This document shows, piece after piece, positions 12,001-40,300 of a DNA stretch of 64,000 nt (its first letter is position 1; every line of letters begins with the position of its first letter). This stretch comes from Chiloscyllium plagiosum. Taxonomy: Eukaryota. Both the position numbers and the translations under genes were made by a program. The notes under the pieces were generated by a model, which saw nothing but the letters and a program-made list of their open reading frames with translations, was not told the DNA's origin and did no database searches. The stretch lies in the NCBI RefSeq assembly GCF_004010195.1, contig NC_057712.1:6251299-6315298 (forward strand). The letters are read 5' to 3'.

Positions 12001-15000
12001 GTGCAGAAAGTGGAATATGGCAAGTGGTATTTCACACTCCTGGTGACAATCGGATTATGACTGTGAAAGAAGCACGTCAAATGAACTATGGAATCAATAT
12101 GACAGTGAGTCGTATCTTGCTTCGTGCTCCATACCATACTAATGAGGCTCAAACAGTTTTGGTGAGTTCACTATTTAATTTCCTCATGGTGTTTTATAAC
12201 TGGAACATTACTGCTATATTTGAATATTGCTTGATGTGTAAACTAGTCACTTCTAATTAGGTTCATGGAATTCCTTTGACTGTAATCCGATCAACTACCT
12301 TCTACAAAGAGCATTGGATGGCTCTGCTAATTGACACTGCAGTGGCTTGTCCTCTTGGTAAGAAATCCAATGTTTCCACTTTACTATAGGATGGCTTCTA
12401 ATGGGTAAATGTTAAACCATCTGAAATTGGATAAATTAATGAAGCAAATCTGTTCATCTGAGACTATTTCCCAGCTTTGCTAGTTAACCCTTTCTGCAAC
12501 TGTCAAATATGGTACTCTGGTTCCTCCCCCCACCGACATTCTACTTGCAATCTCTGGTTTGGTCATTCTTAAAACTGATTTGTCAAATCAAATGTTACTT
12601 TGTTTCCCTTTTTTTTTTTTTCCCCCCTAGATGGTACTTCATTCACTGATGACCTAATCATCTGGACAGTACCAAGAATCTTCACTCCACTCGTCACCAT
12701 TGCAGTTCATCAGGACAACACGTCCATGGGAGTAAATGGGATCAAGTTGAATTCCACAACAATGGGAGAAAGAAACTATACCATTGATAAGAATGATACA
12801 GGCCTTGCTATAAGGGTCCCCATTGGAGCACAGGATGGATATTACAAGGTTGAGAAAATTGTCTTTGTGTAGCATCTAATAATCATGTCTATGCAATCTT
12901 CTATTTAAGATGCATTGCAATCTTAAGCTATCATGCCACCTAGTTTAAATCTCAAATTGAATCATAAAAGCCATACATGATAGACAAAGTTGGAATGTAA
13001 TCTTCTTTCAGGGAAGTGTTTACATTCTAATCAGGAGTTTGTCAGTCATCCAGTCCCTGTCATGTTTGGCTTTTTATGAACCCTTTTTAAATATTATCAA
13101 TCTTTAGGACTGATGTTCTTAATTTTTAGAACTTCCTCTAATGCACATTGGTGTAACACCACATGGCAGATAAGCTTCAGTTATATTCTGGGGCATGTCC
13201 ATATTAAGGTAGGTAAATCCTCAGGAACTCAGGATCATCTCCTCCAGAATGCTGGAGGAGGGTCTTGAATAAAACATTCCCTCTTTCCTCCAGAGATCCC
13301 AGAGCACTAGAATAGCCAGCCTATTTTCAAGGGCAACAGGGATAATTTGGGCACGAAGTCTGGTGAGCCTTGTCAGGTAGGAGGGAAATTTTAACTGAAG
13401 ATTCTTGCATTTTCCCACATTTCTGTGGGGAGAATGAACTTTGACTAGATAGCCTTGTGTGGGGAATGTTGCCTCAAACTGGAGTTGAGGTCTCTGATTT
13501 GAGGGCAGGGTAGTAAACATCTACACGGATCCCATGTGACTTTTTCTCTAACAGCTTACCTTGCTAGAATGTGATAAGTTGGGAAAAATGGATACAGAAC
13601 TACCATCATAAGTCTTTTTTTTTTTCTCTAAACCATGAGTAATGTTCCACAGGGATCAGTGGTGAGAACCCTGTTTTAAATGAATCTAAGAATGCAGGTA
13701 GGCTCTTTGGTAAGATTGTACCCAAAAGACTGGGGGATCTGTAGATAGTGAGGGCTGCTAGACAATACACTAGGATACAACAGGACTTGGCACATGAAGA
13801 CTCCTCTGGACTAGAGGCAATGCATTTTGAAAGATCTAATGCAGGAGAGAACTCTCAGCATCAATAAACAGAAGTCTAGGCATGTAGGCCCAACTTCCGT
13901 GGATGAGGTGATCATGAAAGAATTGTTTGGGACTGTATATAAATAGGCAAGTCATTGCAGCTGTATAAACTTTAATCAAGTCACACTTGGAATATTGAGT
14001 ACAGTTCCAGATGATACTCTAAGGATATGGATATTTGTGTAGAGACAACACGTTACCAGAATGTGGCTTGGTTTGGAACATATTAGCTATGGGAAGAGCT
14101 TGGACAAACTTTGGTTTGTTTTCACTTGGACATTTGAAGGGTGGGAGTGACCTGAAATTTACAAAATTGAGACATAGATCCTTCACAGGCTCTCAGCACA
14201 TGTGGTGGAAGGATTCACACTCCAGCCTACATAGAGACTGAAACCTTAACCCAAAGCCTCAGACTACTGACTATTTCAATCAATCTGAACAACTATGTGG
14301 GGAGGCAGGGTGGAAATAACTTCATGTTGGTCTGTTTTTAAATTAAACATCTGCTTTCAGAGCCATGTGGTGGATGGACAGTATGGTATAAAGTACAGCA
14401 TCAATTTGTTCTTGGAGCACCTGTGGAAAGATGAGGCATGGGGACTGAATAAAATCAATGTGATCCACCCAGTTACTACACCCTTTATACCTCAGCCTCT
14501 GGTTCTCATTGATGGTATGTACTTGTGTAAGAAGGGAACAGTTGAGCAAATAGCAGGTTCTATCTTTAAAAAGTAAACATGGCCTTGATATGTAAATGGT
14601 CATGTAATTAAGTTCAAATATTAAGGTGATGGGTTGGTGCCTTGATCCACCTGTAGGCTAAGTGGCAGAAGTACTATCAAATCACGAATCCTGAGATTCA
14701 AAGGATGTTCCAATCAATGTACTTAACCTGGGAAGAATACTGTTCCCTTGTACCAGTCCATCTTTTGGAAGTATCATTTAGTTGGTGAGAGGCTAGTAAA
14801 GAAGCCTTTTGGTTGCTTAAATGTTTAGGCCAGGAATGGATCTTTAGCTGAATTCATATCCAATCACTACAACTGTTTTTTGTCCACAAAAACACATCTC
14901 GTTTTTCTGTGTATTTCAATGTCCTCCAATCACTTGCTACTAGCAAATTCTCCACCGAGATTAAGTTAGGTAAGTAGGGATAAACAAACCTGGCAGTTCA

Positions 15001-18000
15001 TAAATGGTGGCTGAAGTGTTTAAGAAGTAACTGATCTGAACTATTAAGTCCATCCTTCCAATTGTTGCTAGATCTCAATGTTCAGCTGAAATGAAAACTG
15101 TATGCTTGCACTGATCTAATGTTCAGCCAGTTCAATAGAATTAGAACATATATCAGCACAGGCCCTTTGGCCATCGCTGGTTTCACATGTCAGTGCAACA
15201 AATCTAAAGCCTAGTACACAATTCCATTATCATATTTATCTAAAGACCAGTTAAATGCCTTAATGTTCAGACCCCCAAAAAGGAAATTCCATCTAACTGT
15301 TGTAAATTCTGGCAAAGACAAGTAGCCTGTCTATCCAAAAGTGGTTTTACAGTCTGTAGAATTGTAATTTTTAAAACTGTCTTCCAGATACCATTCCTGA
15401 GCAATGGCTATTCAATGTCTCATTGGGCAACTTCCTTCCTGACGTAGAACTCACCAAGCTCACTCTGGGCACACAGTCCTTCCCTGTGGATGAAGAAACC
15501 CTGATATTTAATGTGTACACTGGGACTAACCCAGATGAGACCACCTTAAATAGAATCTTCATCCTGGAAGTTCCCATGGAGTCACCAGTTGTAGACAGAA
15601 AGGTAATGGGATGTCTGGGTGAATGGCTTCCACGTTGGGAGATGGTGCTGACTTGTGGCTTCCTCCTTCCAGTATATAGGTGATGGTGTTGAACAATATA
15701 CCCTTGATGTCATCTTCACAATGACTGTGGTTCCAGAAAATCTAACATTCACACATCCAGCTCACTTAATACATCAGCACACAATAGGTAGGTGGTTCTT
15801 GCCCTGATGTAGACTGCAAAGTGATCCGTGAAAATGCTTTTTGAAGTAATATGAAATGTGCCTTTTGCTAGTACTTCCTGTGGCTGATGGCTTTTGTGAT
15901 GAAGAGAACGTGACCTTGATGGTAACACGTGGAATGTCAGATCGGTACTGGATTCCTTTCATTGGAAACATGCAGCTCACCCCTCACTCTGCTGAGCAGA
16001 GAGGTTATCACCTGAGAGAGAATGGTACCCACTCAGTAATAACCATTCCACGTGATGCAGCTGAAGTTGTTCATGAGGTAGTAACTATTTAACTCAAATC
16101 TGTTTTGTTTTAGTTTGTGTGTATCCCAACTAATTGTGGCTTCATTCCAGGCAATAAATGAGCAAGGTCTTCGCAACAGGTTTGAGTTCAAATTCCGGGA
16201 TAATGAAACCCTGGAAGTTCTGGTCAACTTTTCTGTTTCTTGCAGCTTTTCAATAAGTGATTTGATAAGTAAGTTCCTGACTTCACTTGCTGTAAGCATC
16301 AACTCTTGCTTAGTCTTGGCATCACTAACTTTTTTTCTTTTCCCTTTAATATAGCATGTTTCCCAAGTGGAAGGATTGTCATCACTGTTCTGAAGCTGGA
16401 AGCATTGTTGGGAGTGGATGGGAAAATGATGCTGAAAGATAAAACCTGTAGACCAAAGGAGAGGAGTGCCTTCAAGGTCACATTTGATTTTTCTGCAAAT
16501 ACATGTGGAACGAGTAGAAGGGTAAGCAACAACTGGCTTCTATTGAAACTAAACTGCCTCTGGGACAATTAGTATTAAACATGATCTCATCATGGACTAA
16601 TTGTGTTTCTTGTGGTAGTTTGAGGAGGACTACATGATCTATGAGAATGAAGTGGCTTTCTTCAAAAAATCAGCACCAGCTAGTGATCCACTGTATCGGT
16701 AAGATTCTGGAGCAAGAGCTTGATTTTAGTGTTTGCTTTCCCTTCTGTGAGTATATGAAAATACAAAGTGACCATCTATGTACCTAGGCTTGCAGTATCC
16801 TGTCATTACCATGTAAATGACACTCTGCATCTTCAGTTTGAACACCAAGTGAATCCTCAGCCAACTGTTGTACCTGGATATGGACCTCTCGTCTTGATGA
16901 TGCAACTTGCCAAAGGTAAATCGCCACCTACAGTGGCTCAATATTAGAACACCTCTGTCGGAGGGGTAAATTTTGAGATCCAGTCTGACTTGATTGCAGC
17001 TATTTTAATTAAGAATTGGAATGAGGATTTTCCTTTCCACCCCTAATTTTATTGGACCTCTTTGCTTTGTTGGTTTGCAGATGTGTCCTATTCTGCCCTG
17101 TATGAGGAAGGTGACTATCCAGTCGTGAAGTATCTGACTGATCCTGTCTATGTTGAAGTGCAACTGCTACACAATGAAGATCCACAAATTGAATTGTTCC
17201 TGCAAGACTGTTGGGCAACTGCGTCACCGGACAGACGCAGCATTCCACAGTGGCCTCTAATTATCAACAGGCAAGTAGGAGCTGCTGCTTTGTAAAGGGG
17301 GGACAGTTTTGACATCTGCCTTTGGGTGGCAAGTGACTATCTTTTGTTTTACAGCTGTGAGAACAAAGCTGACTTGTATAGAACCACCTTCCATCCGGTA
17401 GCCGAGAGTGAGAGGGTTAAATATCCTGCTCACTTCAAAAGGTTTGAAGTCCAGATGTTTACTTTCACCTTGGGCAATTATACTGAGGAACAGGTGAGGA
17501 TTTGTCCAGTACAGTGTTTTTTCAGTATGTTTGTATTCCACTATTGTTATCATTTTCTCTCCCCCAGGTGTATTTCCATTGCAGCGTAGCCTTGTGCAGG
17601 AAGGAGCCAGTAAATAGATTCCTGTGTCCAGGTCAATGTGTACCAAGGAAACAACGAATAGGTAATGCTTGAAGATGGGCACCAAACCTGTGCTGTTTGC
17701 CTGTAATCCTGTACTGACCAGCTGTGTAATTACTACAGGGCGAAGTGCTGACAGAACCCACCATGTGCAGGGGTATGTGTCATCAGGGGCTGTTCTGATT
17801 TCTACAGAATTCCCTACAGTAGAGAACCAGATTGAGCAAGGTGAAAAATCACTTGAACAGCTTAAAGGGAACTTTTGTTTTTAATCTGTGGTGCTGAAAC
17901 ATCTTTTTTTTTTTAGATATGCAAGACCAGTCCCGTTGGCTGCTGCTGCTTGGAGGCTCAGCAGTGATTGCTTTTACTGTGTTCATTTTTGGTTACAGAA

Positions 18001-18017
18001 AACATGGAGCTTGGTGA
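3060..18017 (+). CDS. zpax: Zona pellucida protein AX-like egg-envelope glycoprotein, copy A (952 aa, 22 exons)
   Basis: Exons: 3060-3133, 3218-3276, 3374-3466, 8770-8894, 9338-9478, 9943-10017, 11994-12161, 12261-12357, 12631-12848, 14361-14514, 15388-15602, 15673-15787, 15872-16077, 16151-16268, 16355-16521, 16619-16698, 16788-16915, 17081-17270, 17355-17493, 17568-17661, 17739-17840, 17917-18017. All phases join (2859 nt). Introns are GT-AG except one GC-AG. Features: signal peptide (MASILLFGLILSVSA, alternative ATG at 3111), ZPAX-type PWAAREIFCEENYMQVSV, ZP module (CGT..YENEV..SCHY; YPVVKYLTDPVYVEV..DCWAT..PQWPLII..C..HFKRFEV.MFTF..VYFHCSVALC), RKQR site, EHP VSSGAVLI and a C-terminal TM. 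Confidence 0.9.
4185..4690 (+). mobile_element. CR1 LINE 3' fragment in intron 3
   Basis: Degenerate match to the 3' ORF2/UTR of the CR1 at 1-1220 (TATGCTTTCCTTT..GGTCAG..ATTGAG.TATAGGAGTTGG). Confidence 0.75.
6721..6890. mobile_element. Fold-back Penelope-like pLTR element (142-bp inverted repeat, 6735-6876)
   Basis: Left arm TGCTGGAAGAGCACAGTAGTTCAGGCAGCATCCAAGGAGCAGC...GGGCAAAAGCCCT. The right arm is its near-perfect reverse complement. Confidence 0.75.
13550..14180 (+). mobile_element. Degenerate CR1 LINE fragment in intron 9
   Basis: Remnants GTTCCACAGGGATCAGTG (PQGSV), ATGCATTTTG and CACACTTGGAATATTG..TACAGTTC. Confidence 0.6.
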
Positions 18018-18094
18018 TCTTTAACTAAAAGCTAATGACCAATTCAAATTGGATTTTTGTCATTAATGTCAAATCAGTGTATACTTGGCTTATA

Positions 18095-18275
18095 TATCAG
18101 GCAACATCAGAAATAGGAGAGTTGACATGTCGGGCATAAACCCTTCAGGAATGCAGGATTTAATGCCCAAAACATTGACACTCTTGCTCCTAAAATGTTG
18201 GCTGGCTGTGCTTTTCCAGTACCACGCTTCTTTTGTTTTGACTTTTTTGAACATCTTCAGTCTTCTAACTTTCTC
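18095..18275. mobile_element. Degenerate fold-back Penelope-like pLTR element just 3' of copy A
   Basis: GGGCATAAACCCTTCAGGAA...TGCCCAAAACATTGAC..CTCCT...GTGCTTTTCCAG, same family as 25714-25927. Confidence 0.6.
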
Positions 18276-19484
18276 CAAATAAGCATCTGAGTCATAAATG
18301 GCTTGTCCTAAGCTATAACAATTCTACTTTTCTTATGGCAATATTGGCTAGTAAGGGGTTTGGCTGTAACTTGAGCCACAGTTTGCTTAAACTGGCCAAT
18401 CTCTAGATGCCACCAAACCACTACTGTCACTTGGAGCCTGGGCGGTCAGACTCATGACTTTTGGCATGAACTGAATTCTCACACCTTCTTGCTCAAAGTT
18501 GTACTATCACTACAGTATTTTGTCTGGACCATGTCTCTATCATGTTCCACCCCAAAATGTTGTAAGTTGCAATTTCACCAGGTCCCTCCTGTAGATATGG
18601 TGGCCCTGTGCTACCTGCTTAGAACAGATGTCTCCAGCAACATGCTGATAACATTTCAATTCGGATCTATTCCTAAAGTCAGTGGTTTCAAGTTCAGTTG
18701 AATGAGGACTTTTTTGGTCTACTGCATTGGACTGTTTTCTTCCATTTTAATCTTAATTCATTTGCATCCATCTTTTCCTGTGGATTACTCATGCTCAAGA
18801 TAATGGCAGTAACTGAAGATGGCTTAACTTTGTGCTTAAGGTAGGTCATTTAGGATCATGTAATCAAAGTTATGCCTCCTGAAGATGCACATTCCTATCA
18901 GGAAATACTTTCAAATAATCCTTTATAGGAGAAAGATCTAAGCTCTTGAAACAAGCCACTGAAAGGAAATTGGAAATGTTCACTAGTGTTATTTGAAAGT
19001 GGTGTTAATTGGAACAAATACCTGACCGCTTCTGCCTCTGATCTCCACTGGCTCCCTGTTTTGAATCTTCTAGACTTTAATAGTTGCACCATTAAAACAG
19101 ACTGTTGTTCTAAAATGTTCTGATTCTGTTTTTAAGGACCAGATAGCTCCAGATATGGGGAGCCACTTTGATCTGTCCTCTTCATGCCAAACACTCACTC
19201 ATATAGACTTAGGAGTACATGATTTTGATAGTAGAACCTACAGGGGTGTAGAGTGGCACTATTTTGGGTGTTATCTTGGGTATAATCTGAGGCATGAAAA
19301 TAGAAAAATGACTACTTAAAGGTGAACACTACAGTTTATACTAGAATGCTCAGCATTTAGCAGATTCCAGAGCAGAGATTTGTCAGTATGAAGCAGGTGA
19401 TTATCTGTCTAACACTTTAACAATTAACAGATCTATTTGATGTAAAATGCTCTGCTTAGCCAACATTGGCTTTCACTTGTCAGT

Positions 19485-19636
19485 GGGGAGAAAGTGAGGG
19501 CTGCAGATGCTGGAGATCAGAGCTGAAAATGTGTTGCTGGAAAAGCGCAGCAGGTCAGGCAGCATCCAGGGAACAGGAGAATCGATGTTTCGGGCATAAG
19601 CTGCCTGACCTGCGTTTTTCCAGCAACACATTTTCA
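19485..19636 (-). mobile_element. Penelope-like pLTR insertion with inverted 3' part and 16-bp TSD
   Basis: GCTTTCACTTGTCAGT occurs at both 19469-19484 and 19637-19652. Internal inverted repeat AGCTGAAAATGTGTTGCTGGAAAA / TTTTCCAGCAACACATTTTCAGCT. Confidence 0.8.
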
Positions 19637-19826
19637 GCTTTCACTTGTCAGTCACTAATTTCAACAGTTTTAACTTTATACAGAAGCAAATTTTAACATT
19701 ACTGTGAAACAGAAACATTTTATAAGGAATTCTAAGGTGTTTTCTTTTAATGTAATGTCCTGGTCTTTCAAAGTTTGCTTTTTTAATGTTGCTTGTAGCA
19801 ATTCATATTAGCACTTCTGACTAACT

Positions 19827-20437
19827 TGTGATGGACTAAGCCAGACCACTCAACATTTGTGAGTAGGCAGCCCAAGACCATAACTTTTTGCAATTTGTTT
19901 CAGTAAGTGTACAGTGAAAATTACCCAGTGTAAGATAGCTAACTACTACATTTTAAAATGGACAAATTTAATCACAATTACACTGAAATGAGAATAAAGA
20001 ACCCCTACAGAACTAGACTTATGCTGCTAAGAATATATACTACAGACCAAGTAAGCAAACTCCCTTTTAAAAGATTATATAAATGGAACACATGCTTACA
20101 GGTTGAAGTTGAAGGGCAGAACGTTTCCACATAGCTCCCTGTTGAATTTCTAACTAGTTCAAACTGAACTAAAACTGTTCAGTTCAGCTAGAGAGCTGAC
20201 CATACCTCTTTTTTTTTTTCTTTATGCAGGTCACTTCTAAAGTATGACCACTTTGGCCTGAAGTCTCATCTGTTTACATATAAACAAAGGGCCTCTCAAT
20301 CCTTAATCTCTGTACCAAACCAGACCAATCAGAGCCCAGTGCAGTTTATTACCCCTCTGGGGGGGAAAAAATTCAAGGACAGTCTCCTTTAGCCAAGGAA
20401 CAGCTTTTTAGGGGAAAAAAGGACTAGCTTTGTGACA
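19827..20437. mobile_element. Possible solo LTR
   Basis: About 610 bp with TGT...ACA termini and LTR-like composition. No TSD found. Confidence 0.25.
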
Positions 20438-20759
20438 TATGTAAGCAGCTTCTGGGCTTAAAGCTATCCAAGGAGCTTGCTTAATCTTATTAAAGTTAGG
20501 GTTTTTCAGTTCATATTGGTACAAGATTTCAGTGTAAACAAGAGTGCAAAATAAAACATTTCCAATTAACTCCTCACTTTCATCAGGTCAAAAGTGTGGC
20601 CATGGGCTCCAGTTATTGTCAGTCTTTTGCAGGGTACATGGAACATGCTTTGTTCTAGTCCTACTGGGGCATCCACCCACTACTTTCTCCAGTGTCAATA
20701 ACCTATTTAGTTCTACTTTCCTCAGTTCTGGACAAGAGGTTGGAGAAAATTTATCAAAT

Positions 20760-22085
20760 CTTGATTCCAACTTCTACCTGCTGTGACCTTCATGTCTCTC
20801 CCTGATGTCTCCTTTGACATCAACTTCCAGGTATAGGCTGGCTACCCATACAAACCCACTGACTCCAAGTTATTTTGACCAAGCATCCTTGCGCTCAACC
20901 TAGAATAGAATTTAGAAAGCTTTTTCCTTTTTTCTGGAACAGGATGTGCTCATGATGCCAATGGCAACAAGAGAGCCACAACATATCCATAGTCACCTTT
21001 TGACCAAGGGCTCCCCAGCACTGGTCTGAAAGCTGGATGTGACTAAGGGCCCCATCTCTGTCCTGATTTTGGCCCTTACCTGCCCTCCACAGAGATAGTG
21101 AACCCATCCCCAGGCCTCACTTGCTATCCCACCAGCCTGCATATCCAAAGGATTGTTAGCCAATTTCTGCCACCACAGCAACATACTTTCCCCCTCTCTT
21201 CCTCCTTTTTGTCAGCCTTCCACAGGGACTGCTATGGCCACCTTGGTCCACTTCACCTTCCCTCCAATGTTTTGTCACCTTCCCATACAATCCGGTGTAA
21301 TATCTACCTGTTTACTTCCCACTTTTTTTCCCACACCCCACTAACCAAGGTCTTAAACACACCTTTTCACATGAAGCAGTGATTTACCTGCACGTCACTC
21401 AATCTAAAATACTGTTTGCCCACAATCTGGGCTGCTCTACATTGGGGAAACACAGTGCAGATTAGGTGACCAGGTTTTGTTTAAAAACCTGATGTTCTGT
21501 TTGCAAAACTGACTGAGCTTCTGGTTGCCTACCACTTCAAGACATTACTGACGTCCCTGGTCAACATCCATCTTTGCCTTGCTGCATTGCTCTAGCAAAA
21601 CTCAGTACAAGCTGGAAGAACAAACCATTTCATTTTTCACTTGGGGACCCAAAGCCTTCCAGACTCTGCACCAAGTTCAATACTTGAGGTGAGTACATTC
21701 TCCAATGTCCTTTCCCAAATCTCTTTTCTCTTCCCCTGCTCTTCTTTTCTCTTCCCACCCCCCCACCCCCAAAAATAGACCTTGTCATCTCTCTCAAGCT
21801 GCTACCAAACAGGAGTTACTGTTGCCAGACTTGCTGAGCTTTTCCAGCATTTTTTCTGAACTTTACCCATTCATTTGTCTGCCCAATCACTACTATCACA
21901 CTCTCACTCCTCTCTGCCCTTTCCCTCCACCTGAATCTAGTGTTCACTCCTCCTTTTTCTGTCTCCACCCCTACCCCTACCCCTCACCATCTTTAGCATA
22001 AAAAACATCTTCCAGCTAGTTAGTTCTAAATATTAACTCTGCTTTCTCTCCTCAAATGCTGCCTGACCTGAGATTTTTAGAGCAT
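20760..22085 (+). mobile_element. Degenerate Penelope-like retroelement (RT thumb, GIY-YIG endonuclease, pLTR)
   Basis: Remnants TACAAACCCACTGACTCC (YKPTDS) at about 20848 and GGGCTGCTCTACATTGGGGAAACA (GLLYIGET) at about 21429, then a pyrimidine-rich 3' region and pLTR motifs. Confidence 0.7.
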
Positions 22086-22424
22086 TGAACATTGCAATAC
22101 AGGCCCTTCAGCCCTCGATGGTTCCATAGGTTGGTGCAACAATCTGAAGCCCATCTAACCTACATTATTCCATTTTCATCCACTTGTTTATCCATTGACC
22201 ACTTTAAATGCCCTTTAAAGTTGGCAGGTCCACTACTGTTGCAGGCAGTGTATTCCACGTCCCTACTAGGTAACGAAACTACCTCCTGATGGCTGTTGTC
22301 TATCTATTGCCCTTTATAGCTTTAAAGTTTTCAGCAAGTTTTGTTTCTAATCTTGTTACTCTTGTTTCCTCTAACAGTTCTTCCCTATATTAAGCTTTGC
22401 AAGTTATCTCACAGCAGTATTTTC

Positions 22425-22650
22425 TAGGATTTACATATGAATCAAAACCTGCATCACCATTCTGAGATTGCAGACTTAATAGCCATTTAGGTTTGTCTAA
22501 TACATTGTTAGTTGTATGCCACTTTGATCTTTTTACATAAATTATTTGTCCTATGTATCCTGACTAAGGAGCAATGCTCTGAAAGCTTTTATTTTCAAAT
22601 AAACTTGTTGGACTATAACCTAGTGTCATGTGATTTTTAACTTTGACCGG
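22425..22650 (+). mobile_element. 3' end of a second Penelope-like family, with degenerate hammerhead core
   Basis: CTGACTAAGGAGCAATGCTCTGAAAGCT...AAATAAAC.TGTTGGACTATAACCT.GTGT..TGTGATTTTTAACTTTG. A reverse-strand copy lies at 59012-59110. Confidence 0.65.
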
Positions 22651-22974
22651 TTCATTAAAAAAATGAAATCTAGGAAAGTGAAGGCACCTTTTAATAGGTC
22701 AATGTTCTTATTCTGAGAAATCACTTTTTTCTGTTTTGTTCTGTTAAGATCCTTCAAGTATGTTATGGAGTCACTATTGTTGCATCAGTTCAAATATAAA
22801 CCTCACTACACTGAATTATGCAAAACAGACAGCAAGCAAAAGAAATGCACACTTTTGACTTGGATATATCTCCTGATGTAACTTATGTCTGTAGCAATGG
22901 GATACAGCTGAGCTGTTTTACATAACACTAGGGCAGTCTCAGTCTATTAAGTGTGTACAAGACAGTTTTCTGAT

Positions 22975-25713: not shown

Positions 25714-25927
25714 GAAGTCAAAAAGTATAGCATTGGAAAAGCACAGCAGATCAGGCAGCATCCAAGGAGCAGGAGAGTTAATGTTTTGGGCATAAGCCCT
25801 TCATCAGGAAGGGCCTATGCCCAAAATGTCAACTCTCCAGCTCTTCTATGCTGCCTGACCTACTGTGCTTTTCCAGCACCACACTTCACTCTGACTGTCC
25901 AGTATCCGAAGTCTTCACTTTCTCCTA
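25714..25927. mobile_element. Fold-back Penelope-like pLTR insertion with 10-bp TSD
   Basis: GTTGAAATGA at 25704-25713 and 25928-25937. Inverted arms are centred on GGGCATAAGCCCTTCATCAGGAAGGGCCTATGCCC. Confidence 0.8.
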
Positions 25928-25999
25928 GTTGAAATGAATAGCTTGGTGAATGTAGTTTACTGGCTATTTCTCAATCTGTGGTATGAAGGTTTCAGCTAA

Positions 26000-28000: not shown

Positions 28001-28099
28001 AATTTCTTCCTCCTGATTAACCTTGAAGTCATTTTCTGCTGTTGTTTATATTATGACCCAATCATTTTGTTCAGATTTTTAAGTTGATACTTTCCCTAA

Positions 28100-28310
28100 G
28101 TAGGAATCAGTTTAGCTCAGCTGGCTGGATCATTGGTTTACAGAGCAGTGTAGGTTCAATTCCCATCACCGGTTTGAGGTTACCATGAAGGATTCTCCTT
28201 CTCAACCTCTTCCCTCACCTGAGGTCTGGTGGCCCTCAGGTTAAATCACCACCAATCACTTCTCTCTAATGAGAGAGTAGCCCCTATGATCTGGTAAGAC
28301 TGGTGACACA
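28100..28310 (+). mobile_element. tRNA-derived SINE, family not identified
   Basis: A-box-like TTAGCTCAGCTGG and B-box-like GGTTCAATTCCC. Confidence 0.5.
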
Positions 28311-29756
28311 ACTTTCCTGAAGTTATTCAGTTAGCCATGGATGATGGGTCCTCTTTTTAGAATTTGTCTTTCGAGTAGGAATTATTTTGTTCTGGTAATT
28401 CTGAAGTATCCCCTTAACTATCTCCCACTCATATCGATCTATTCCTTAGCCTAGTTTCCCAGTTCACTTCAGCTACCTCAGGTTTCACACCCACATAGTT
28501 GCTCTTTTTTAAGTTTAAAACTCTAGTCTCAGACCCAACTTATTCCTTTCAAAAAGTGTAATTATATTGTGGTCACTACAACCTAGGGGTGCCTTAACTC
28601 TGAGGTCATTAGTTAATTCTGTCACATTGCACAATACCAAGTCTAATATAATCTGGTCTCTGGTCAATTCCAAAATGTGTTACTGTAAAAATAATCTTGA
28701 AAGCATTATATGAACTCTTCAGCCAGGCTACTACTGTGACTCTCATTTATCCAGTTATATGTAGATTAAAGTCACTCATGATTATTGCCATTCCTTTATC
28801 ATAAGCACTCAATATTTCTTCCTGTGTACTTTGTCTCATGTCAGTGTTAGGAAATCTGGAGATCTCTTCCATTAGTGGCTTCTTTCCCTCATAATCCCTC
28901 AATTCTACTTACATTAATTTAACACCCTGATCACTTGAACTAAGGTCACCTCTAACTATTGCATGAATTAGAATTAGGTTTATTGTCACATGTACTCAAG
29001 TACAGGGATGCATGAGTACGGTGAAAATTGTACAATGTCGCCACTTCCAGGGCCATCTTAGGCACAAAGATATTGAGGTACAATATTTTAGGTATAAATT
29101 GGAAAGGTGAAGAAATAAAGGTAGAAGATCAGCATTGCTGTCTTTCTAAAGCAGTGAGTCCATGTTGGGCTTCCTCAAGGGCGGGAGTCCACACCAGACT
29201 TCCTCAAGGCTGGGAGTCCGTGTTGGGTTTCACTGAGGCTGGGAGTCCTTCAAATCTATGCTGGCTCAATTCTGCACCACTGATGCCATCTGAGGAATGG
29301 AGGTAAATAGAGAAAAAAAATGAAAGAGAAGAAGAAACAAACAAATGAAAGTGAAAGGAAATAGATGAAGTGAACGATCTCTGGCTTAGGAGACTACTCC
29401 ACCACCATCACTCTCCGACCATACTTGATTAAGAGTGCTACCCTTCCAGTCCTAGCTTCCTATGTTCCTTCTTGCTAGTTATGTGGTTCAAGGGTAGATT
29501 GTCCAAATGAAACAGCCCTTACTTTACCAGTATTGATGTCAGTGAGTCACAAGCCTACTTCTCCCACTCCAGTTGTTGAGGTACAGATTCATCTCTCTAA
29601 TTTATGCATCTATGCCAATTTGCAAACAGTTCAGGTAATGTTCCAGAAATTATAAGGTATTTGAGGTTCTGCATTTCAATTTAGTGCCTAGCTCTTTCTA
29701 CTCACTGTGCAGAGCCTCTTTCCTAATCCTATTTGTGGAATGGGTATCCAGTAGAT

Positions 29757-30102
29757 GGGATGGCACGGTGGCTCACTGCTGCCTCACAGCGCCAGGGACT
29801 CGGGTTCGATTCCAAACTCGGGTGATTGACTGTGTGGAGTTTGCACATTCTCCCCTGTTTCGGTGTGGGTTTCCTCCGGGTGCTCCGGTTTCCTCCAACA
29901 ATTCAAAGGTGTGCAGGTTAGGTGAATTGGCAATGCTAAATTACCGATAGTGTTCATGAACGTGTAGGTTAGGTGCATTAGTCAGGAGTAACTATATAGT
30001 CAGGATAAGGGAATGAGTCTGGGTGGGTTAATATTTGGGGAGTCGGTGTGGACTTGTTGGGCCAAAGGGCCTGTTTCCATACTGTAGGGATTCTATGATT
30101 CT
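29757..30102 (+). mobile_element. V-SINE (HE1-like), near full length
   Basis: TGGCACGGTGGCTCA..., B box GGTTCGATTCC, V-domain TGTGTGGAGTTTGCACATTCTCCCC...TTTCCTCCGGGTGCTCCGGTTTCCTCC and a CR1-like tail. Confidence 0.9.
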
Positions 30103-30684
30103 AGATCTCTCTCCCACTGCAAGTTTCATTCCAGTCCTAAATAGATGTCCAAAACCCTGGCATCAGACTCTCACTCTTTGCTGCAACGAACAGTTTCAAA
30201 CCCAAACACTATACTATCACATATTAATACATTCCTTGTTGTTTCCCTCACTTGAATGGCTTCCTGTATACAATGGCATTGTCAGTTTGTACATCCATCA
30301 AGCAGCATTACTCTCATCCAAACAGTTTGAGAGAACCTCAAACCTACTGCAGAACTGAAGGAGCAGATACGCCTGCTCTCTGGACCCTGTTACCTGTCTT
30401 ACATACGGTCACACTCTCCTGTCCCTGGCCACTGGGCTAATCAGAAAACCCTATCCAAAATGATGTGACTGCCTGTGGTACAAAATATCCAAGTAACTTT
30501 CCCTCTCCCTGAGGCAGTGTCTGTAGTTCACCCTCCAGCTCATAAATTTAGGTGTCTTTGCCCTCGATCACAATAGGATCTAGAAATCCAACTTACTGTA
30601 GTCCTGACACATCACCTGAACTGTCACCCTTAATGATTTTTGATTACTTAAAGTTTTTTTATTCACTTACTTATGCCAGGATTC

Positions 30685-30975
30685 CAGAATTAGACAGCAA
30701 AGGTTTAAGGTGAGAGGGGAAAAAATTAAAAGGGACCTAAGGGGCACCTTTTTCACTCAGAGGGTGGTGCGTATATGGAATGAGTAGCCAGAGGAAGTGG
30801 TGGAGGCTGGTACAATTGCAACATTTAAAAGACATCTGGATGGGTAAATGAATAGGAAGGGTTTGGAGAGATATGGGCCAGGTGCTGGCAAATGGAACCA
30901 GATTCATGTAGGTTTTTCGATCGGCATGGACAAGTTGGACCAAAGGTTCTGTTTCCTTACTGTACAACTCTATGG
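30685..30975 (+). mobile_element. CR1 LINE 3' end
   Basis: Matches 24985-25260. Confidence 0.8.
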
Positions 30976-31089
30976 AACTCTGTTACCATTTTAAATATTC
31001 TGTTGACTTTACCACCAAATTGTACACCATGTTAACATTTAAGATCAGAAAAGACCTTTACCAGTTACCAGAGACTCAGCAAACAGATA

Positions 31090-31292
31090 ATTGGCAGGTG
31101 TGTCAACTGGAGAGGAGTGGGGTGGGAGGGGAGAGTGGGTTCAGCTGGAACAGGTGTGGGTAAGGAGAGGAACAGGTGAGGGAGTTGGAGGGGAGGAACA
31201 GGTGTGGGTAAGGAGAGGAACAGGTGAGGGAGTTGGAGGGGAGGGACAGGTGTGCAGAGGGGAGGGGATGGTAGGTGTGGAGGAGGGACAGG
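31090..31292 (+). promoter_or_regulatory. E-box-rich upstream region of ZPAX copy B with a 48-bp tandem repeat
   Basis: CAGGTG at 31095, 31151, 31173, 31199, 31221 and 31247, CAGCTG at 31142 and ATTGG at 31090. The 48-bp unit occurs at 31147-31194 and 31195-31242. Confidence 0.6.
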
Positions 31293-31322
31293 TCTGCTCA
31301 GCCAGGGGCTAGATTGTGGATT

Positions 31323-34300
31323 ATGGCATCGATCCTGCTCTTTGGGTGAGTCTGTGCGATGGGGAGAAAGTTGGAAACGGGATGGACGCTCCCATGTTTT
31401 TGCTAATTGCTTCTTCCTCTCTTTAACAGTTTGATATTATCGGTGTCTGCAACAGCTCCTGAAGTCTGGATGCAAAGTGCCCCTCCAGGTCAGTGTTCTA
31501 TCCAAAGATAAAGTGTTTGTTTTGTGCTTTGACTCTGAGCTGGTGTCTTTAATGTTGAAGAACTTTCTTTAATCTATTGTTGTAGGTTTGCTGAAGGCTG
31601 AATGCCGCGACAGTGTCTTTTGGGTTGGACTGAATAAGGATTTTCTTGCCGGGAAGTTCTGGCAGATTAGCATTGTTGGTGAGTGTTGCTGCTTTACCTT
31701 GGAGTCGGTGTGTAACAGATCTCTGCTCCCAATATTGGTCTGATGGACCTATCCGTTGTATGTCATCTGAAGACTAATCTGAATTGTCTGCTTTTTTTTT
31801 CACCACCTCTATTTACAACAGTGTTGTGTCAGTGTCTTGATACTGTTAAATACTGGAGTGATAAAAGGATTGAATTTTGATGCTCAATTAAGCCCATCTT
31901 TCCCAATATAAAGTTTCATGGGATACTTGCAATAAGTTTGCACCTTTTTTTTTGTAAGCCTGATGGCTTGAATTTTCTGTTCAAACAAATGCTTGCTCTC
32001 CACTCATCCTAATTGGCTGGATTTCACAACTGCAGCAGAAAATGATTGACTACACCAGCTCTTCAAAGGCACACTGTTGCCTCCTGCCATTTTAATTCAC
32101 TACCACCCCACACCACACCACACTCTTGCCATATTTCTCTGGTATTAGATGATTCTTGGATAATCATTGTATTATCACTGTAGGCTCTCCTTAAACAGGT
32201 TGTTCAATGACTGGCCTGGAATGACTGTCTAATTCTTAGTTAATTTGTTTTAACACTTTAAGCTACCAACCCTGAGCTTAAAGTCCAAGCTCAGTGTGAT
32301 ATTTGGATGTTTTGTTTTACTGTTAGTAAAAATCAGATTCTGAAAATAGTGACTTTGATTTAATTATGGATTTTCATAACTTGAACACTATGGTTAATGA
32401 AGATTTGTACCTAACAATGCAACAAGTTACCTTGTCACTTCCAAATGAGTGAATCTACATTACTGTTCCCTTTTGGTCTTGGTCAACATTTTTAGTCTTG
32501 TTGACTATTTAATTTTTAAGCCATTGCTTCCATTAATAAGGATCTCCATTTTATAAATCACATGTAACCTAGGTTTGTCGTCATGACTCTAGCAGGCATT
32601 TCCAGGTTTTGAACTACTGCACTAAAAATCTATTTTCAGAACCACTCTTGAGAATCAATTAGAATGGATGTGGAACAAAACAGATCATTAATCTTAAGTG
32701 TGCTCAGTCACACTGTTAAGTCAGTACTTACTATTTTAGTTAGGGAAAGTGACATTGCTTTGATCCTTTAATAAATAATTCAGAAATCTAATTGCTTTTC
32801 TGGTGAATAAACAGCAAACTTCCATGTGCACCTGTATAGGTATTCCTGCCAATTGAAGCAAATTTGTTTGCAGTGTGTGCAGACAGTTCATGATTTTGAA
32901 GCTAACTCTAGGTTTTCTATAACTTTTCTAGATCCTGCTGGTAAAATCTATCTTGTTACACCAAGCTTTGCTTCACAGTGTGGCTACACCATTACAGTGG
33001 ATTTGTGGAATAATGTTGAGTTCCGTGCCTCTGTCCTCAGCTGCTGTGTACATATTGTGGTAAGATATGAAGATATAAATTTCAGATCTAGGTGTTTTTC
33101 CTATCTTCAGTCTGTGTAGACAGAACCAAAGAAAATGCAAGAAATGTTTAAGTGCCCCCAAGAATGAGTTGACCTACTTTAAGGTGGGCTGATGGATGAA
33201 GGAAAGACCAGTGAGAATCCTTCTAGGAATAAAAGGCTCCATGTATTTCTCATAAGGGAGGGGGCTGGAGGATGTGGAGTGGTAGGGGGAGGAAGAGACA
33301 AACCATGCAGCTAGTCAGATTTTTGTGGTTACTATTGGGTAACTGCAACAGGTTAGTACCTCCATACAGAAAAAGTCAAACAAAAATATCGTGCAAAAAT
33401 CCTGAAGTGTAATTGGTTTCTGTGCCTGTTTACCCCTCTCTCCATTGCATTACCTTTTATAAGTTTTACAATTGTTTTTATTACTTAAATCCTGGATGTT
33501 ATATTTGAAATTTCTTTTTGGCTCAACCAACTCCTAACGCAACTTAATCCAAACCTCCATCTTGGTGGTTTTCTGGTTTTGTAATTTCCTTTTACGGAGT
33601 CACTGAATTCATCTTTACTGCATAGCCTGTTTTGTGTTTTAACATCTTTTAACACCATGAGATGGAGAGGATTTTGAACCTATAGTCACTATAATTGAAT
33701 AAATATTCAGGTCCTTTGCAGGATAAAGTGAAAGCATGTGTATAAAGACCATGTCAAGATGGTGACCCTTGTTATTGAATTATACTTTTTTTAATTTTGT
33801 CTACAGAATGATGAACAGTTCAACCTCACTGTACAAATACATGTAGGAACTAACAGGATAATGGCTTCAACATATGTTCAAACACTTTCATGTATGTACT
33901 CACCATGGGCTGCAAGGGAAATCTTCTGTGAAGAAAACTACATGCAGGTAAACGGCTAATGCCAAATACTGGTTTGACTATTTTCTACAGTTAGTAGCAA
34001 TTCTAAGCTGTTCTGGAAGACTAGTAATATCTAAAATACAAATTAGGTACCTAACAACAAATTGTAGAATCTGAGCTCATAACTAACTTTAATCATCCTT
34101 TGTCTAGTCAGTAGCTCAGACTGCCATCTAACATTGACTCGGCACTAATTATGTATGCAGCTGGGGCTGCTGTTAATGACCAGTAATTTTTTTAAATCTT
34201 ATGCAGGTTTCAGTACAAAGAAAGATACCACCAATTGAAGACGATTATGCACAGGATTCTCAGGACTGGTCTTTAATTCTTCCAGAAGTAAGATGTCATG

Positions 34301-37300
34301 GATGAAATTTTCAATGGTGGCCTATTCTTCGTAATTCGTTTTAATTTGCAATGCTTCATTCTAATGAATGCAACCATGGCTGTAGACTATATTTTCTTGA
34401 ACAATGGCAAAAGTAGGCCCAATGTATTTGTTTTTTTTTTCTTCCAACACTGTTTGAAGAAATTGCCGTGTACTGCCTTTTAACCTGTTTGGCTTGTTAA
34501 CTTGAGCTTTCCTAAGTGTCTAATCAAAACATGAGTAAAGTTATGGATCATCACTGGGCCAAAATGTTAATTTTAGAATTGTGATCTTTTAAAAAAATGT
34601 TTAACTTTTTTTGAGCCCCAGAACATGTCAAAAGGCCTTTTTCTGACACAAGATGTCAGAGCATTGATTATATCAAATTGTCTTGTGGAATTTCCATTTT
34701 GCTTGCAGCTTCACACTTCTAATAGAGATAGGCAAGTTGGAAGTCAGGGACACTGGTGTCTCTCTTTGGTTTTCCTTTATGGCATTGTACATGAACTTCA
34801 TGTTGAAGGTGACCTCCAGTAATATTTGCAGAATTTGTGACAGTCCTTGTTGCAGCTTCAGTGGAGTTTTAATTATCTTTATTGCTGATCTAGGCAAGTA
34901 GTGCAGAAAGTGGAATATGGCAAGTGGTATTCCATATATCTGGTGACAAAAGGACTATGACTGTCAAAGAAGCACATCAAATGAATTATGGAATCAATAG
35001 TACAATGTCTCGTATATTGCTTCGTGCTCCATATCATACAAATGAGGCTCAAACTGTTTTGGTAAGTTCATTATACTACTCTGGCTTTCCTGAGCCTTTT
35101 TAGATTGCATGTAAATGCAGTAACTGATGCTTTTTTATAATTAGGTCCATGGTGTGCCCTTGTCAGTAATACGATCAAGTACTTTTTATAAACAGCACTG
35201 GATGATTCTTGTTGTTGACACTGCTGTGGCTTGTCCTCTTGGTAAGATTGCTAATCTTGTATCTTTTAAATTAAGCACAATTGTAGGCTTCATTGAAGTC
35301 TATTTACACACCTCCTTTTAATATTCCCTGTTTCATTTGAAACATTACGGTCTGGTCTAAGCAGTAGAGTGAGGGCTGAGTACTCTTCATGACCCTTAGG
35401 GAGCTGCTTCGACTTCTATGGAGTTAGTGGAGATATTTAGGACTAAATTAGTTAGGCTAATATTGGAATACTGCATTCAATTCTAGTCTCCCTCTGTAGA
35501 CAGGATGTTGTGAAACCTGAAAGGGCTCAAAGATTTACAAGATGTTGCCAGGGTTTGAGCAAAAAGGAAAGCCTGAATAGGCTGGGACTATTTTTCCTTC
35601 TAACCTCAGGCTCAGGCTGAGCCTCTTTTATAGAGGCTTTAAAAATCCAGGGGCATGATATGGTGAATAGATAAGTCTTATCGCTGATGGGAGTCCAGAA
35701 CTGGAGGGCATAGGTCCCTTTTCTTTCCCTCACCTTAAACCTAACAGCCAACTTTCTCATGCAGAGGATGGTGCACATGTGGAATGAGCCTTCAGAGGAA
35801 GCGTGGAGGTTTGTAGAATTGCAACATTTCAAGGCACCTGGATGTGTATGAATAAGGGTTTAGATGATATGGAACTAGATTAATTTTAGGATATCTGGTT
35901 GGCATGGACAAGTTGGACTGCAGGGTCTGAATCCATGCTGTACATTCTAACTCTATTTTTAGCAATTCTAAACCTACTACTTGTTATCCCTCAGATGGTA
36001 CTTCATTCACTGATGACCTAATCATCTGGACAGTACCAAGAATCTTCACTCCACTTGTCACCAGTGCAGTTCATCAGGACAACACCTCCATGGGAGTAAA
36101 TGGGATCAAGTTGAATTCCACAACAATGGGAGAAAGAAACTATACCATTGATAAGAATGATACAGGCCTTGCTATAAGGGTCCCCATTGGAGCACAGGAT
36201 GGATATTACAAGGTTGGATTTTGGATTTTGCCTTGCAAGTGAAAGGATAAAAGCAGCTAACTCAAACGATCTTCAGTATTTCATAAGAGCAGAAGGCCAT
36301 TCAGTTTGTCAAATCTGTGGTTGCTCTGATATGTACTTCTACTCCTGTACCAGCTCAATGACTCATGATTTTAGTTTACTAGAAATGTAATATGACCTTG
36401 AATCTCAATGATATCTTCTGAGCAAAGCACTGAAGACAAGATTTTGATTAGATTTCTCATTTAATGAAGAAAATCATTCTAGAGTTGCCTTTCCTCTAGC
36501 ATCCTGCACTGCAGATGCTCTCCAGATCTAATCTAACTAGTCCCTTCAAGTTTGTCTAAAAAAAATCACCCCACATTCTTAATTTTAGGTGTGCCAGTCC
36601 AACCTGCTCAACTTTCTTTCTCCAAGACTACAGTTAGTCACTAGTTTGACTCTTGGAAACTTCCTCTAGACTGCTTCCAATGCAAGTGTCTCCCCCCTTT
36701 CGGTAAAGAAACTAAACAGTACACCATGTTCTGTACAGTTGTAGGAGGACTTCTAAATGCATTTCCCACACTACAGAAAAGACTAACATTCTATTCATCC
36801 TAATTAGTTTACCTTCATGCTAACAGTTGTGCTGTCTATGAACTAGGACATCTGATTCCTCTACAGCATTCCAGTCTCTTTGAGAGAATAGAAAGCTAGA
36901 TCATTTACAATGGAGGAGTTGACATTTCTCCACATTGCATTCTACCTGCTTTTCACCCTTATCTTGTACCCCTCATTTTATTTGTAACTTCTCAACTTGC
37001 CAAATTTATTATGCAAAATAAGAAACACCATCATCATTGAATAAAAACCAATGTAGATTGTAAACTATCCCTGAAGCATGCCAGTATTTCACCAGCTAGC
37101 AATTTATCCAGACTGTTTTGTTTCCTACTGATCAGTCATCTTTCAAGTTCCCTAACTACCCTTTTTGTGGTATCTTGTTAAATGCCTTCTAGAAGTTCCA
37201 GGTGCATGATCTTTTCCTTGTTATCAACATTGATTTTAAGTGCTCAATTCCAACCCTTATGAAAGGAAAACCTTGCTGTGTGATTAAAATGTCCTGTTGG

Positions 37301-40300
37301 TACCTCCTGCTAGCTATCCCAAAAACTAATTAGATTTGAAATAGCCTGCAGCTTCCTGCTTTATCTAACCTTCAATTTGTAGAACTGCAGATGTAACCTC
37401 TAATTACAATCTTCCAAAATTGCCTAACCGCCCACTCCCAGATGGGTCCTTATTTGCCAGTGTGGCACTAGAAAAGCTCAGCAGGTTGAGGAGCAAGAGT
37501 CTGTTTTGGGCATAAGCCCTTCCAACACCATACTTTTTGACTCTCCAGCATCTGCAGTCCTCCCTTTTCTCCTAGGTCCTTAGACCCTTTTAACTTGACA
37601 ACCGTGCCTTTCTTGCTGCAGCAGAGTTGCACACATCACATCCCTTACCTGCTAGAAATCCAGTCCTATCTATGAATGTTCTGTATTGCTTTTTACTTTG
37701 GTGTCAATTTAACCATGTGGCTATAAATGTTGTACACTAGTGAGCCTTAATGGTTTTACCTGTCTTACTGCAATTTAGTGTTTGCTGTCCCTCCCAGTTG
37801 CATTGATTTTTGATTTTTTTATCACTGCCTGCATTTGAACTTGATACAATTTCCTTGACTTAAGTTTTCCAGACTCCACCTATGTACAAACCTGGCCTAT
37901 CTGTAGTCTTGTGCAGACCAGCTGTCACAGTTGGATCCTTGCCCCAATTCCCCTCTAGCATTGAGGATTAACCTGTCCTTGCTATCAGATTCCCTGTTAT
38001 TTCCCCCTGCCTTGTCTCCCAAATCAAAATCCTGTAGCCTGCTTGTTGTCAAACTTCAGAAATCCCAAATCTGTTGGGCGAAGTATTGGAGGAGCCTCTA
38101 AAAGGATCTAGGTGTCCATCCGTCTGTCCACCCACCCTGTAACATGTGAAATTCCTAGTTTGTGACAAACTTGTGGAACCAAACCAGTCCAATAAAATGA
38201 TCTTTCCTGATTCACTGCAGTGTTTGAAATGGACTCCGATCATCAACCATAGTTGACAGGTTCTTGCCAGAAAGTTCAGTGCCTCTACACCTTGAATAGT
38301 TTCATATGTGAACAAATTGTAGTTCTATACACTATTTATATCCTGATGAAGACCAGTATCCAAATATTCAAGTGTGGTAAACATACAAACTTTAGATTAT
38401 GTTAATAGGACTTTACCATCTAAAATTACCAATTTATCAAACTGCCCACTCATTTCTTACCTCACTATTACTTCCACAGAGCCATGTGGTGGATGGACAG
38501 TATGGTATAAAGTACAGCATCAATTTGTTCTTGGAGCACCTGTGGAAAGATGAGGCATGGGGACTGAATAAAATCAACGTGATCCACCCAGTTACTACAC
38601 CCTTTATACCTCAGCCATTGGTTCTCATTGATGGTATGTACATGCCAAATTTTCTAAGATGGCTGAACTAACTTAGAATGGGATTCCTCTCCACTCAAAT
38701 TCTCTTGGAAAAATGTTTATTAATATAAGGCATAACTTGATTTTAGGCTGTTTTAAATGATTGTCATTATTGTACAATAATGACATCTAATGGCTGTTTT
38801 TCCACAATGGGCTTTGTGGAGGCAGGACACTTGTCCCTTGTCTTGCACTATTGGTTTGGTAGCTGGGAGAGAAAGGGAGAATAAGAACTGGAGTGAACTC
38901 CAGTTGGTATTTCACTTTTAATATCTTCCAATGATGGGCTTACTGTTTTTAAATCCAAGCCAAATGTGACTGTTCTAACTTACAAATTTATGGCTTGAGA
39001 ATGTTAACAGCCTATTGAACCCCAAGCCAACCAATAGTTAAGACCTCCAATTCCAGGATGGAAGCTGAATTGATCAATTGTTACCACAGTCACAAGTCAG
39101 GGAACATTCAAGGCTGCCAAGCCTTTTTTTTTTTTTACAAGAGTGGAAAAATGGTATTTGGAGAGATCTCTATGAACAACAGGATTTAGCCTTTTTTTTT
39201 TTTCCCCAGCAATATCCTGGTTTATGACACTTGAGACACCTGAGTGAAGTATTAGTCTTATCAGTTAGATAAATTGAAGAGTTAAGGTTGAGTCTTTCGA
39301 TTATGTAGAAAGTGATTGAATTCATTACAGATTTTTCTGCTGAGACTGGCACAAGTGCAAGTGTTTTTAAAAAATGTATGCTATTCAAATTGCAAGTAGC
39401 ATGTCCAGTCAGCGAGCTTTGGTCACGTTACAGATGTTTTGACCCACTAATTTTTCTGGCTGTTAAGTCTTCACAGAACTGAAACTAAACCAGTTTCATC
39501 TACAATATAATGCCATTCCAAAATATTCACGCTTCCTCAAACTGAAGTAGTTTCTATTCTAATCAAGAATATTTTTAATCATTCTAAAAATTCATTTTTA
39601 ACTTTATTTCCTTCACGATTAATCTTGACCAAGCATCTGTTGCCTCTTGTCACAAATGATATTCCAATCTAAAATAGTTGAAGTTTAACACCAATCCAGA
39701 CTTTTGCTGTAGCTTTAATGAATTAAATGAGGATTATAAATCCACAAATCACTGGTGTCAGGAATGCAGACTTCAAAATGTGGTAGACTTCAGTTAAGTG
39801 ACTTTCTTCACTATTGAATATTTCTGGAACAAATTCAACTTGACCAGAAAAATAACTGGTTCCTTTTCCTCAATTCTGTGCCAACATATCTCTGGAATAA
39901 CTAAATGGATTAGAGTTTACTGCTGCTAAAACTCTCAGTAATCACTGCGACTTTCAGGTTGTCGTGGCACTTTGCTTTGCTTTACCCACTCAAATTTCTT
40001 GCCTTTGCCAAAGTTGTCAAAAGAATAGAGTAGAAATTTGAAATTTCTAATTTAAATCCACCCTTTTGATGTACTAAATTTGTCACCATTCCAAGGTGAC
40101 TCTAGTCTTTAAGGTTAAAGTCACTTTTTTGTGCTTGACAACTCAGTCTTTCAGTTGGCTTATGAGTTTATTTGTACAAGGATTTTTATTCTCCATGTTT
40201 TTGGGCCTTTTTGACAATGGATTTTGTTAGGTGCATTCCTTATGGCAAACAGTAACAGGAATTTGTCAAATCATGACATTCTGACCAGGTTTTTGGTCCA

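Follow-up and report, generated by a model that had tools for sequence, protein, structure and literature searches.

How can single exons of two neighbouring genes stay nearly identical up to their splice sites while the introns around them are unrelated? The question is raised by a tandem gene pair of the bamboo shark Chiloscyllium plagiosum, contained in a window of 64,000 nucleotides (nt), which is the whole stretch analysed (contig NC_057712.1 of assembly GCF_004010195.1, positions 6,251,299 to 6,315,298, forward strand; positions below are those of the window). The two genes, here called A (3060-18017, + strand) and B (31292-45534, + strand), share a 22-exon structure and are assigned to the ZPAX subfamily of egg-coat proteins by the database names of their best matches. 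An earlier note on this DNA had singled out exons 9 and 10 and offered two explanations, short DNA conversion tracts bounded by non-homologous introns or, preferably, a spliced mRNA/cDNA donor. Here, identity between the copies was found to form a mosaic along the whole gene, in which trees switch between grouping by species and by paralog, short introns are homogenised together with their exons, and divergence of isolated exons falls with their length. From these patterns we infer that repeated non-allelic DNA gene conversion has very probably kept exons 1-3, 9, 10 and 11-21 of the two genes alike for some 170-200 million years since an old duplication, with selection probably also playing a part.

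Exons 9 and 10 within a gene-wide mosaic

Exon 9 (12631-12848 in A, 35995-36212 in B) differs between the copies at 3 of 218 nt, two of the changes being synonymous (12692, 12722) and one exchanging Ile and Ser (12700). Exon 10 (14361-14514 and 38480-38633) differs at 3 of 154 nt, all synonymous (14459, 14498, 14499). Both counts are exactly those claimed before, and the identity does drop close to the AG and GT: the exact match reaches 2 nt (5') and 4 nt (3') past exon 9 and 3 and 8 nt past exon 10. The islands therefore extend over 12629-12852 in A and 35993-36216 in B for exon 9, and over 14358-14522 and 38477-38641 for exon 10 (all + strand), those of B being placed by self-alignment and exon comparison. 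Contigs of two species branch at 12852, and in a related species (organism B) exon 10 forms a single node, 14366-14522, at about 2x depth. The flanking introns are unrelated, as had been stated, with local alignment scores of 19, 24 and 25 for introns 8, 9 and 10 against shuffle means of 19.5, 25.1 and 25.6. Their description as filled with transposable elements (TEs) was borne out for A intron 9 (repeat at 13556-14176, depth 117-537x vs ~16x), A intron 10 (15005-15211) and B intron 8 (35445-35943), but not for A intron 8, where depth revealed no repeat. Intron parts free of repeats likewise retain no similarity, for which age alone can be a sufficient explanation.

Synonymous divergence (dS) between the copies is 0.063 in exons 9-10 (0.041 in exon 9 and 0.099 in exon 10), 11-fold lower than the 0.71 of exons 4-8. 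The neighbouring exons 7-8 are indeed diverged at synonymous sites (dS 0.53 vs 0.063, Fisher p 5e-6). The claim that exons 9 and 10 are homogenised thus stands for both, but not as a peculiarity of theirs, since exons 1-3 and 11-21 are even more alike (98-100% identical, short introns included, dS 0-0.005). Exons 4-8 (74-88% identical) and exon 22 (58%) are not homogenised. The converted share comes to about 75% of the 22-exon coding sequence.

The first homogenised block comprises the 3' part of exon 1, exons 2-3, introns 1-2 and the start of intron 3 (3082-3550 in A, partner ~31294-31762, + strand). Its dS is 0, its two introns match at 84/84 and 96/97 nt, and its edge fades over ~140 nt of intron 3 (30/30, 29/30, 24/30, 21/30 and 18/24 matches in successive steps). 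The second comprises exons 11-21 with 10 short introns of 70-165 nt (15380-17849 in A, 42791-45347 in B, + strand) and shows 4 differences in 1519 comparable nt. In B it is broken by an N gap (43372-43447) and a repeat of ~960 nt (43448-44409), and its edges lie close to splice sites, 8 nt upstream of the exon 11 AG and 9 nt past the exon 21 GT. Inside the blocks, all eight short introns testable in both copies are 98.6-100% identical, or 734 of 736 nt pooled, introns 13-16 falling outside the comparison where B is gapped. Between the blocks lie the unconverted exons 4-8 (8770-12357 in A, partner 32932-35241, + strand), set apart by their dS and by the tree tests and diagnostic sites described below. 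At the 3' end, the unconverted exon 22, encoding the transmembrane (TM) tail (17917-18017, partner 45419-45534, + strand), differs at 22 of 32 amino acids (aa). GC content at fourfold sites is 0.41/0.40 in converted and 0.22/0.16 in unconverted exons (p 0.004 and 4e-5).

Within the otherwise diverged exons two exact runs were seen, one of 43 nt at the start of exon 7 (11989-12031) and one of 26 nt at the end of exon 5 (within ~9425-9478). In exon 7, moreover, residues private to a species are common to both copies in 3 of 5 species. Micro-conversions are a possible source of the identical runs.

Age and recurrence of the mosaic in sharks

The mosaic was followed at the protein level in paralog pairs from five species, C. 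plagiosum, C. punctatum, Stegostoma, S. torazame and Heterodontus. Left out of these counts were S. canicula (B in two fragments), Pristiophorus (both copies B-like and partial), Heptranchias (7 A-like copies), the fused Pristis model and the one-copy species (Hemiscyllium, Rhincodon, Mustelus and batoids). Approximately unbiased (AU) tests covered exons 4-12 and 18-21. It can be seen that, first, the by-species tree fails for exons 4, 5, 6 and 8 (p<=0.0017). Secondly, exons 9, 10, 11, 12 and 18-21 are incompatible with the by-paralog tree (p<=0.00074; 4e-68 for exon 9 and 0.0007 for exon 10), and exon 7 fits either. In the tree of exons 4-8, a B clade with 100% support spans carpet sharks, catshark and horn shark, that is, three orders. 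The trees of exon 9, of exons 9-10 and of exons 11-12 plus 18-20 mostly pair the copies by species, the C. punctatum copies not being joined in that of exons 9-10. Exon 9 differs between paralogs at 1, 0, 1, 0 and 2 of 73 aa in the five species and between families at 11-17 of 73, and its residues private to a species and common to both copies number 1, 0, 6, 10 and 3.

The 15 paralog-diagnostic columns of exons 1-21 all lie in exons 4-6 and separate 7 A from 7 B sequences. At these columns A mostly matches batoids and chimaera, which implies that B changed early and was then held. A deep tree on exons 4-6 (114 columns) joined the sawshark copy to B at 90% and left the A copies and the root without resolution; this placement suggests a duplication older than ~170 million years (My). 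Crown Carcharhiniformes are dated to 170-208 Ma (PMC9763247). Together with the B clade across orders, this date makes the duplication at least ~170 My old and would place it before the split of the galeomorph shark orders. Several marks of concerted evolution were found here, namely by-species trees, a duplication older than the species splits, homogenisation at neutral sites and raised silent GC.

Copy number varies outside the five pairs. In Heptranchias, 7 A-like copies are nearly identical to one another (2-32 aa apart; P0010, P0034-P0039), and Pristiophorus has 2 B-like copies (P0011, P0041), which points to copy-number turnover at this gene in other sharks.

Mechanism, donor and alternative explanations

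The mosaic may be explained as follows. Conversion would require continuous homology. Exons linked by short introns would form long blocks that convert often, together with their introns (dS 0-0.005). Where long introns became saturated and gained repeats, each exon between them would be left as an island, its homology upheld by purifying selection on the protein, and tracts would stop at or near the splice sites. In experiments in yeast and rodents the minimal efficient pairing segment (MEPS) was ~200 bp (PMC3924818). Islands near this length, exon 9 (218 nt) and exon 10 (154 nt), would convert less often than the blocks (dS 0.04 and 0.10), and shorter ones (75-141 nt) would have escaped, probably aided by selection on B-specific residues.

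In agreement with a dependence on length, dS of the seven exons that lie between non-homologous introns was 1.62 at 75 nt, 0.90 at 97 nt, 0.82 at 125 nt, 0.76 at 141 nt, 0.10 at 154 nt, 0.35 at 168 nt and 0.04 at 218 nt (rho -0.96, exact one-sided p 0.0014). Exon length was also correlated with the cross-species aa ratio (rho -0.79, p 0.024). A stronger version holds that, once long introns lose homology, only exons longer than ~150 nt stay concerted, for ~200 My and in parallel in every galeomorph lineage, and that shorter ones escape regardless of selection. This we regard as a tentative idea, somewhat less probable than its negation. If true, the locus would be a natural, replicated measure of minimal pairing length for conversion in the vertebrate germline, and copy B would owe to its escape two new N-terminal egg-coat domains, the first and the second, in a protein that is otherwise common to both copies. 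Exons 4-8 encode most of predicted N-terminal domains 1-2, with domain limits as read from the structure model, and selection on B-specific residues in these domains probably helped them escape. In this part of the gene the effect of selection cannot as yet be separated from that of lost homology.

Several observations weigh against conversion as described above. The length trend is post hoc, rests on seven exons and is confounded with position, as the two long islands adjoin block 2; exon 7 (168 nt), in addition, is less homogenised than exon 10 (154 nt). The short introns 7 and 21 have diverged instead of being homogenised, and the contrast in silent GC was measured within this pair, without a single-copy control. 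At exons 9 and 10 themselves, the intron overhangs (2, 4, 3 and 8 nt) are no greater than those of unconverted exons (2-7 nt) and hence provide no direct signature of DNA conversion. Exon 10 is slow and less homogenised, with a paralog/ortholog ratio of 0.47 vs 0.06 for exon 9, and the two S. canicula copies of exon 9 show ~8 differences in 63 aa, the B model there being fragmented. The evidence across families consists of proteins, intron sizes forming no part of that comparison. Logan contigs, used for the read evidence below, can merge near-identical copies or small bubbles, and contigs at twice the depth do not prove 100% identity.

The closest relative also gives little contrast. In 218 nt of exon 9 it has 4 differences from A and 1 from B, and in 157 nt of exon 10 it has 4 from A, about the paralog level. 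The earlier note had named as a reason for doubt a dS between species as low as that between paralogs. Taken literally, this is what the closest relative shows (exon 9, 1-4 of 218), but it is not seen across shark families. Intron divergence to this relative is only ~5% (45/1010 and 48/918), and the comparison is therefore too shallow for such a test. In favour of conversion, a derived letter at 12802 is common to both window copies and absent from the relative.

The first alternative is that a spliced mRNA or cDNA donor homogenises exons 9-10, on top of DNA conversion elsewhere in the gene. It draws on the abrupt loss of identity 2-8 nt from the splice sites with unrelated introns beyond, a pattern from which Mullis et al. 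inferred cDNA donors in fungi (PMC6993855). A contig with exon 10 spliced to exon 11 (depth 2.7) is also present in one presumed RNA run of the relative; run X20 covered neither exon 9 nor exon 10, and the 2% of single-cell run X21 that was read gave no matching reads. By the criterion of the same paper, though, homogenised introns mark a genomic donor, and they occur in both blocks. Along the gene, every intron testable in both copies is retained. The 2-8 nt overhangs at exons 9-10 are like those at unconverted exons and at the edges of the DNA-made blocks, which likewise end 8-9 nt from splice sites. Since an intron-containing block also ends at splice sites, such edges do not diagnose cDNA; with long introns saturated, they are what DNA tracts leave. 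Exons 9, 10 and 11, whose joint conversion the earlier note had suggested as a check for cDNA, were not co-converted in S. torazame (0/73, 7/51 and 0/72 aa differences, Fisher p 6e-5), a reading that assumes a similar intron layout in that species. In catsharks the likeness between copies declines in the 3' direction (exons 19-21), opposite to the bias expected of poly(A) priming. Of the 52 protein matches from a genome search, none was a retrocopy spanning an exon junction, and exon 9 had just 2 matches at the DNA level, both counts being floors because of a stricter first look. An intronic 7-nt indel at 17067 was present at full depth in both organism-B runs and absent from both organism-A runs, a distribution by species which implies that within a lineage the two copies have one and the same form of the intron.

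A cDNA donor for exons 9-10 is therefore improbable, and the option that the earlier note had preferred gives way to its other one, short DNA tracts, which fits all the tests run. With short introns and intronic indels co-homogenised, the donor was most likely DNA; for exons 9-10 themselves we infer the same.

Unequal crossing-over or repeated recent chimeric duplication might also produce a mosaic, and the varying copy number in Heptranchias and Pristiophorus shows that copies come and go. But alternating segments down to 154-218 nt would need a double crossover each, at the same edges in five species, which makes this quite improbable. Still less credence can be given to strong constraint or slow evolution, without ongoing conversion, as the source of the likeness of exons 9-10. 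Between families, exon 10 evolves more slowly than the rest of these exons (p ~0.11), and the closest relative has a very similar exon 9. In exon 9, however, families differ at many residues and paralogs within a species at hardly any; private residues are common to both copies, the AU tests reject the paralog tree for both exons, and dS is far below that of exons 4-8. The family and paralog differences together with the AU test refute a constraint-only reading for exon 9, and the low dS and the AU tests uphold the earlier remark that protein constraint alone does not suffice.

The read evidence bears on the assembly. From 43372 to 44409, the N gap and the repeat stand where B exons 13 (3' part) through 17 belong. 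An unplaced contig (C30934, L004) is a second version of B intron 10 to exon 13: it joins B intron 10 to exons 11-13, reaches 45 nt past the gap and has 3 private single-nucleotide polymorphisms (SNPs). Run X4 has one contig that spans 15380-17056 and passes through exons 13-17; its depth is 26.5x and that of its flanks ~16x. In run X11, from the related species (organism B), one contig covers exactly 15380-17849 at 24x vs 12-14x and differs from the window by 90 substitutions and 34 gap positions. These contigs of about double depth imply that exons 13-17 are present twice, that the gap in B is likely an assembly collapse and that the edges of block 2 are the same in both species. The annotated 739-aa B protein (P0004) is likely an assembly artefact. 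That reads of one copy were written into the other in assembly or polishing, for which this collapsed part of B speaks, is nevertheless the least credible explanation: four other species have the same mosaic in their annotated proteins, independent runs show branches at these edges, ~2x depth where the copies are shared and B-type introns that join exons 10 and 11, the unplaced contig keeps its SNPs and the B letter at 15443, and where A is derived B retains letters that the relative also has.

The two proteins, their surroundings and known systems

Copy A encodes 952 aa in 22 exons, its spliced open reading frame being exactly NCBI protein P0017. Copy B has the same exon structure and matches P0004; at the assembly gap it is without the 3' part of exon 13 through exon 17, and a full-length B protein is present in C. 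punctatum (P0005). The A protein has a signal peptide, five predicted N-terminal beta-sandwich repeats, a ZP-N plus ZP-C module and a C-terminal TM helix. Pfam placed ZP-N at 621-709 and ZP-C at 733-867 and also matched Ig_ZP2. The structure model, in which the five repeats were seen, had a predicted local distance difference test (pLDDT) score of 79, with fold matches to ZP2 ZP-C and ZP2-N1N2N3. By our reading of its strand pattern, exons 9-10 (aa 278-401) make up the third N-terminal repeat. ZPAX is a subfamily of vertebrate egg-coat proteins with a long N-terminal repeat region and a ZP module (PMC8005149), as here. Signal peptide, ZP2-like repeats, ZP-N plus ZP-C and TM tail, as given by Pfam, model and fold matches, agree with this architecture, and the best named matches are ZPAX1 of whale shark, sawfish and stingrays. 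The assignment to ZPAX rather than ZPY follows these names and is provisional, and the egg-coat role of both proteins is putative, read from family membership.

In predicted domain 2, aa 170-187 (exon 6, 9943-10017) form an acidic, low-confidence loop with 5 paralog-diagnostic columns. In position it may correspond to the cleavage loop of ZP2. Intron 18 is GC-AG in both copies (17271 and 44769). Directly upstream of copy B, a G-rich tandem repeat (31095-31290, period 22-48) replaces the 5' part of exon 1 and may be transposon-derived. It has 6 CAGGTG motifs in 160 nt, against 2 upstream of A; the E-box is tied to promoters of egg-coat genes. Short, partly palindromic repeats are dispersed in the window (6721-6876, 19521-19639, 25734-25875, 44315-44400 and 49402-49500), and an Rfam scan of the window, these repeats included, gave 0 matches. 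A sawfish model (P0003) fuses ZPAX to a second, 40%-identical ZP gene, which suggests an older neighbour paralog; the genome search, with its stricter first look, found no counterpart beside the pair.

In the literature searched, which held few subscription journals, we found no report of concerted evolution between ZPAX copies, nor of gene conversion in ZPAX or zona pellucida genes at this locus. The process itself is already known, and the ZPAX pair is a fresh, clean case of mosaic concerted evolution, unusually old and well replicated for a vertebrate and lying in a reproductive gene family for which that literature gave no earlier case. Predicted N-terminal domains 1-2 and the membrane tail are the only places where the two predicted egg-coat subunits differ. 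A tree of the whole gene would give the duplication too recent a date, and the locus is collapsed in assemblies from short reads. As a series of graded length, the isolated exons allow a test, in shark genomes generally, of how conversion depends on the length of homology. Finally, a pattern of identical exons, unrelated introns and splice-site edges does not speak for an RNA donor, as tracts made from DNA in this very gene have ends of that kind. Fungal ribosomal protein paralogs with cDNA donors (PMC6993855) share the likeness of exons beside some unlike introns, and differ from the present pair in that short introns are homogenised here.

The closest parallel in sharks is sparc-L/scpp (PMC9122587), also old tandem duplicates with discrete converted zones over coding exons, in which converted parts group by species pair and the remainder by paralog. 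There, four 5' zones lie between otherwise dissimilar genes; in ZPAX about three quarters of the coding sequence is involved, with a contrast of blocks and islands and a trend with length. The mammalian pairs BMP8A/B, DDX19A/B and TUBG1/2 (PMC2720389) show an exon mosaic kept for more than 100 My, introns included, with raised GC at third codon positions. The shark case would be older (at least 170 My), and the mammalian screen needed two exons with an intron and so would miss single-exon islands like exons 9 and 10. In medaka LWSa/LWSb opsins (PMC6389941) and Capitella Dlxa/b (PMC3199776) short introns are co-converted and a long intron is unalignable, and in Capitella a tract ends a few bases (12 nt) into an intron, as in ZPAX. 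Those are small genes in few species, without a graded series of isolated exons. Primate red/green opsins (PMC3924837) likewise keep paralog-specific residues in a restricted region while the rest is homogenised. According to the same review, TE insertions and indels end pairing. In the opsins, however, introns are homogenised and one exon stands out, whereas in ZPAX the long introns are dead to conversion and exons persist between them as islands.

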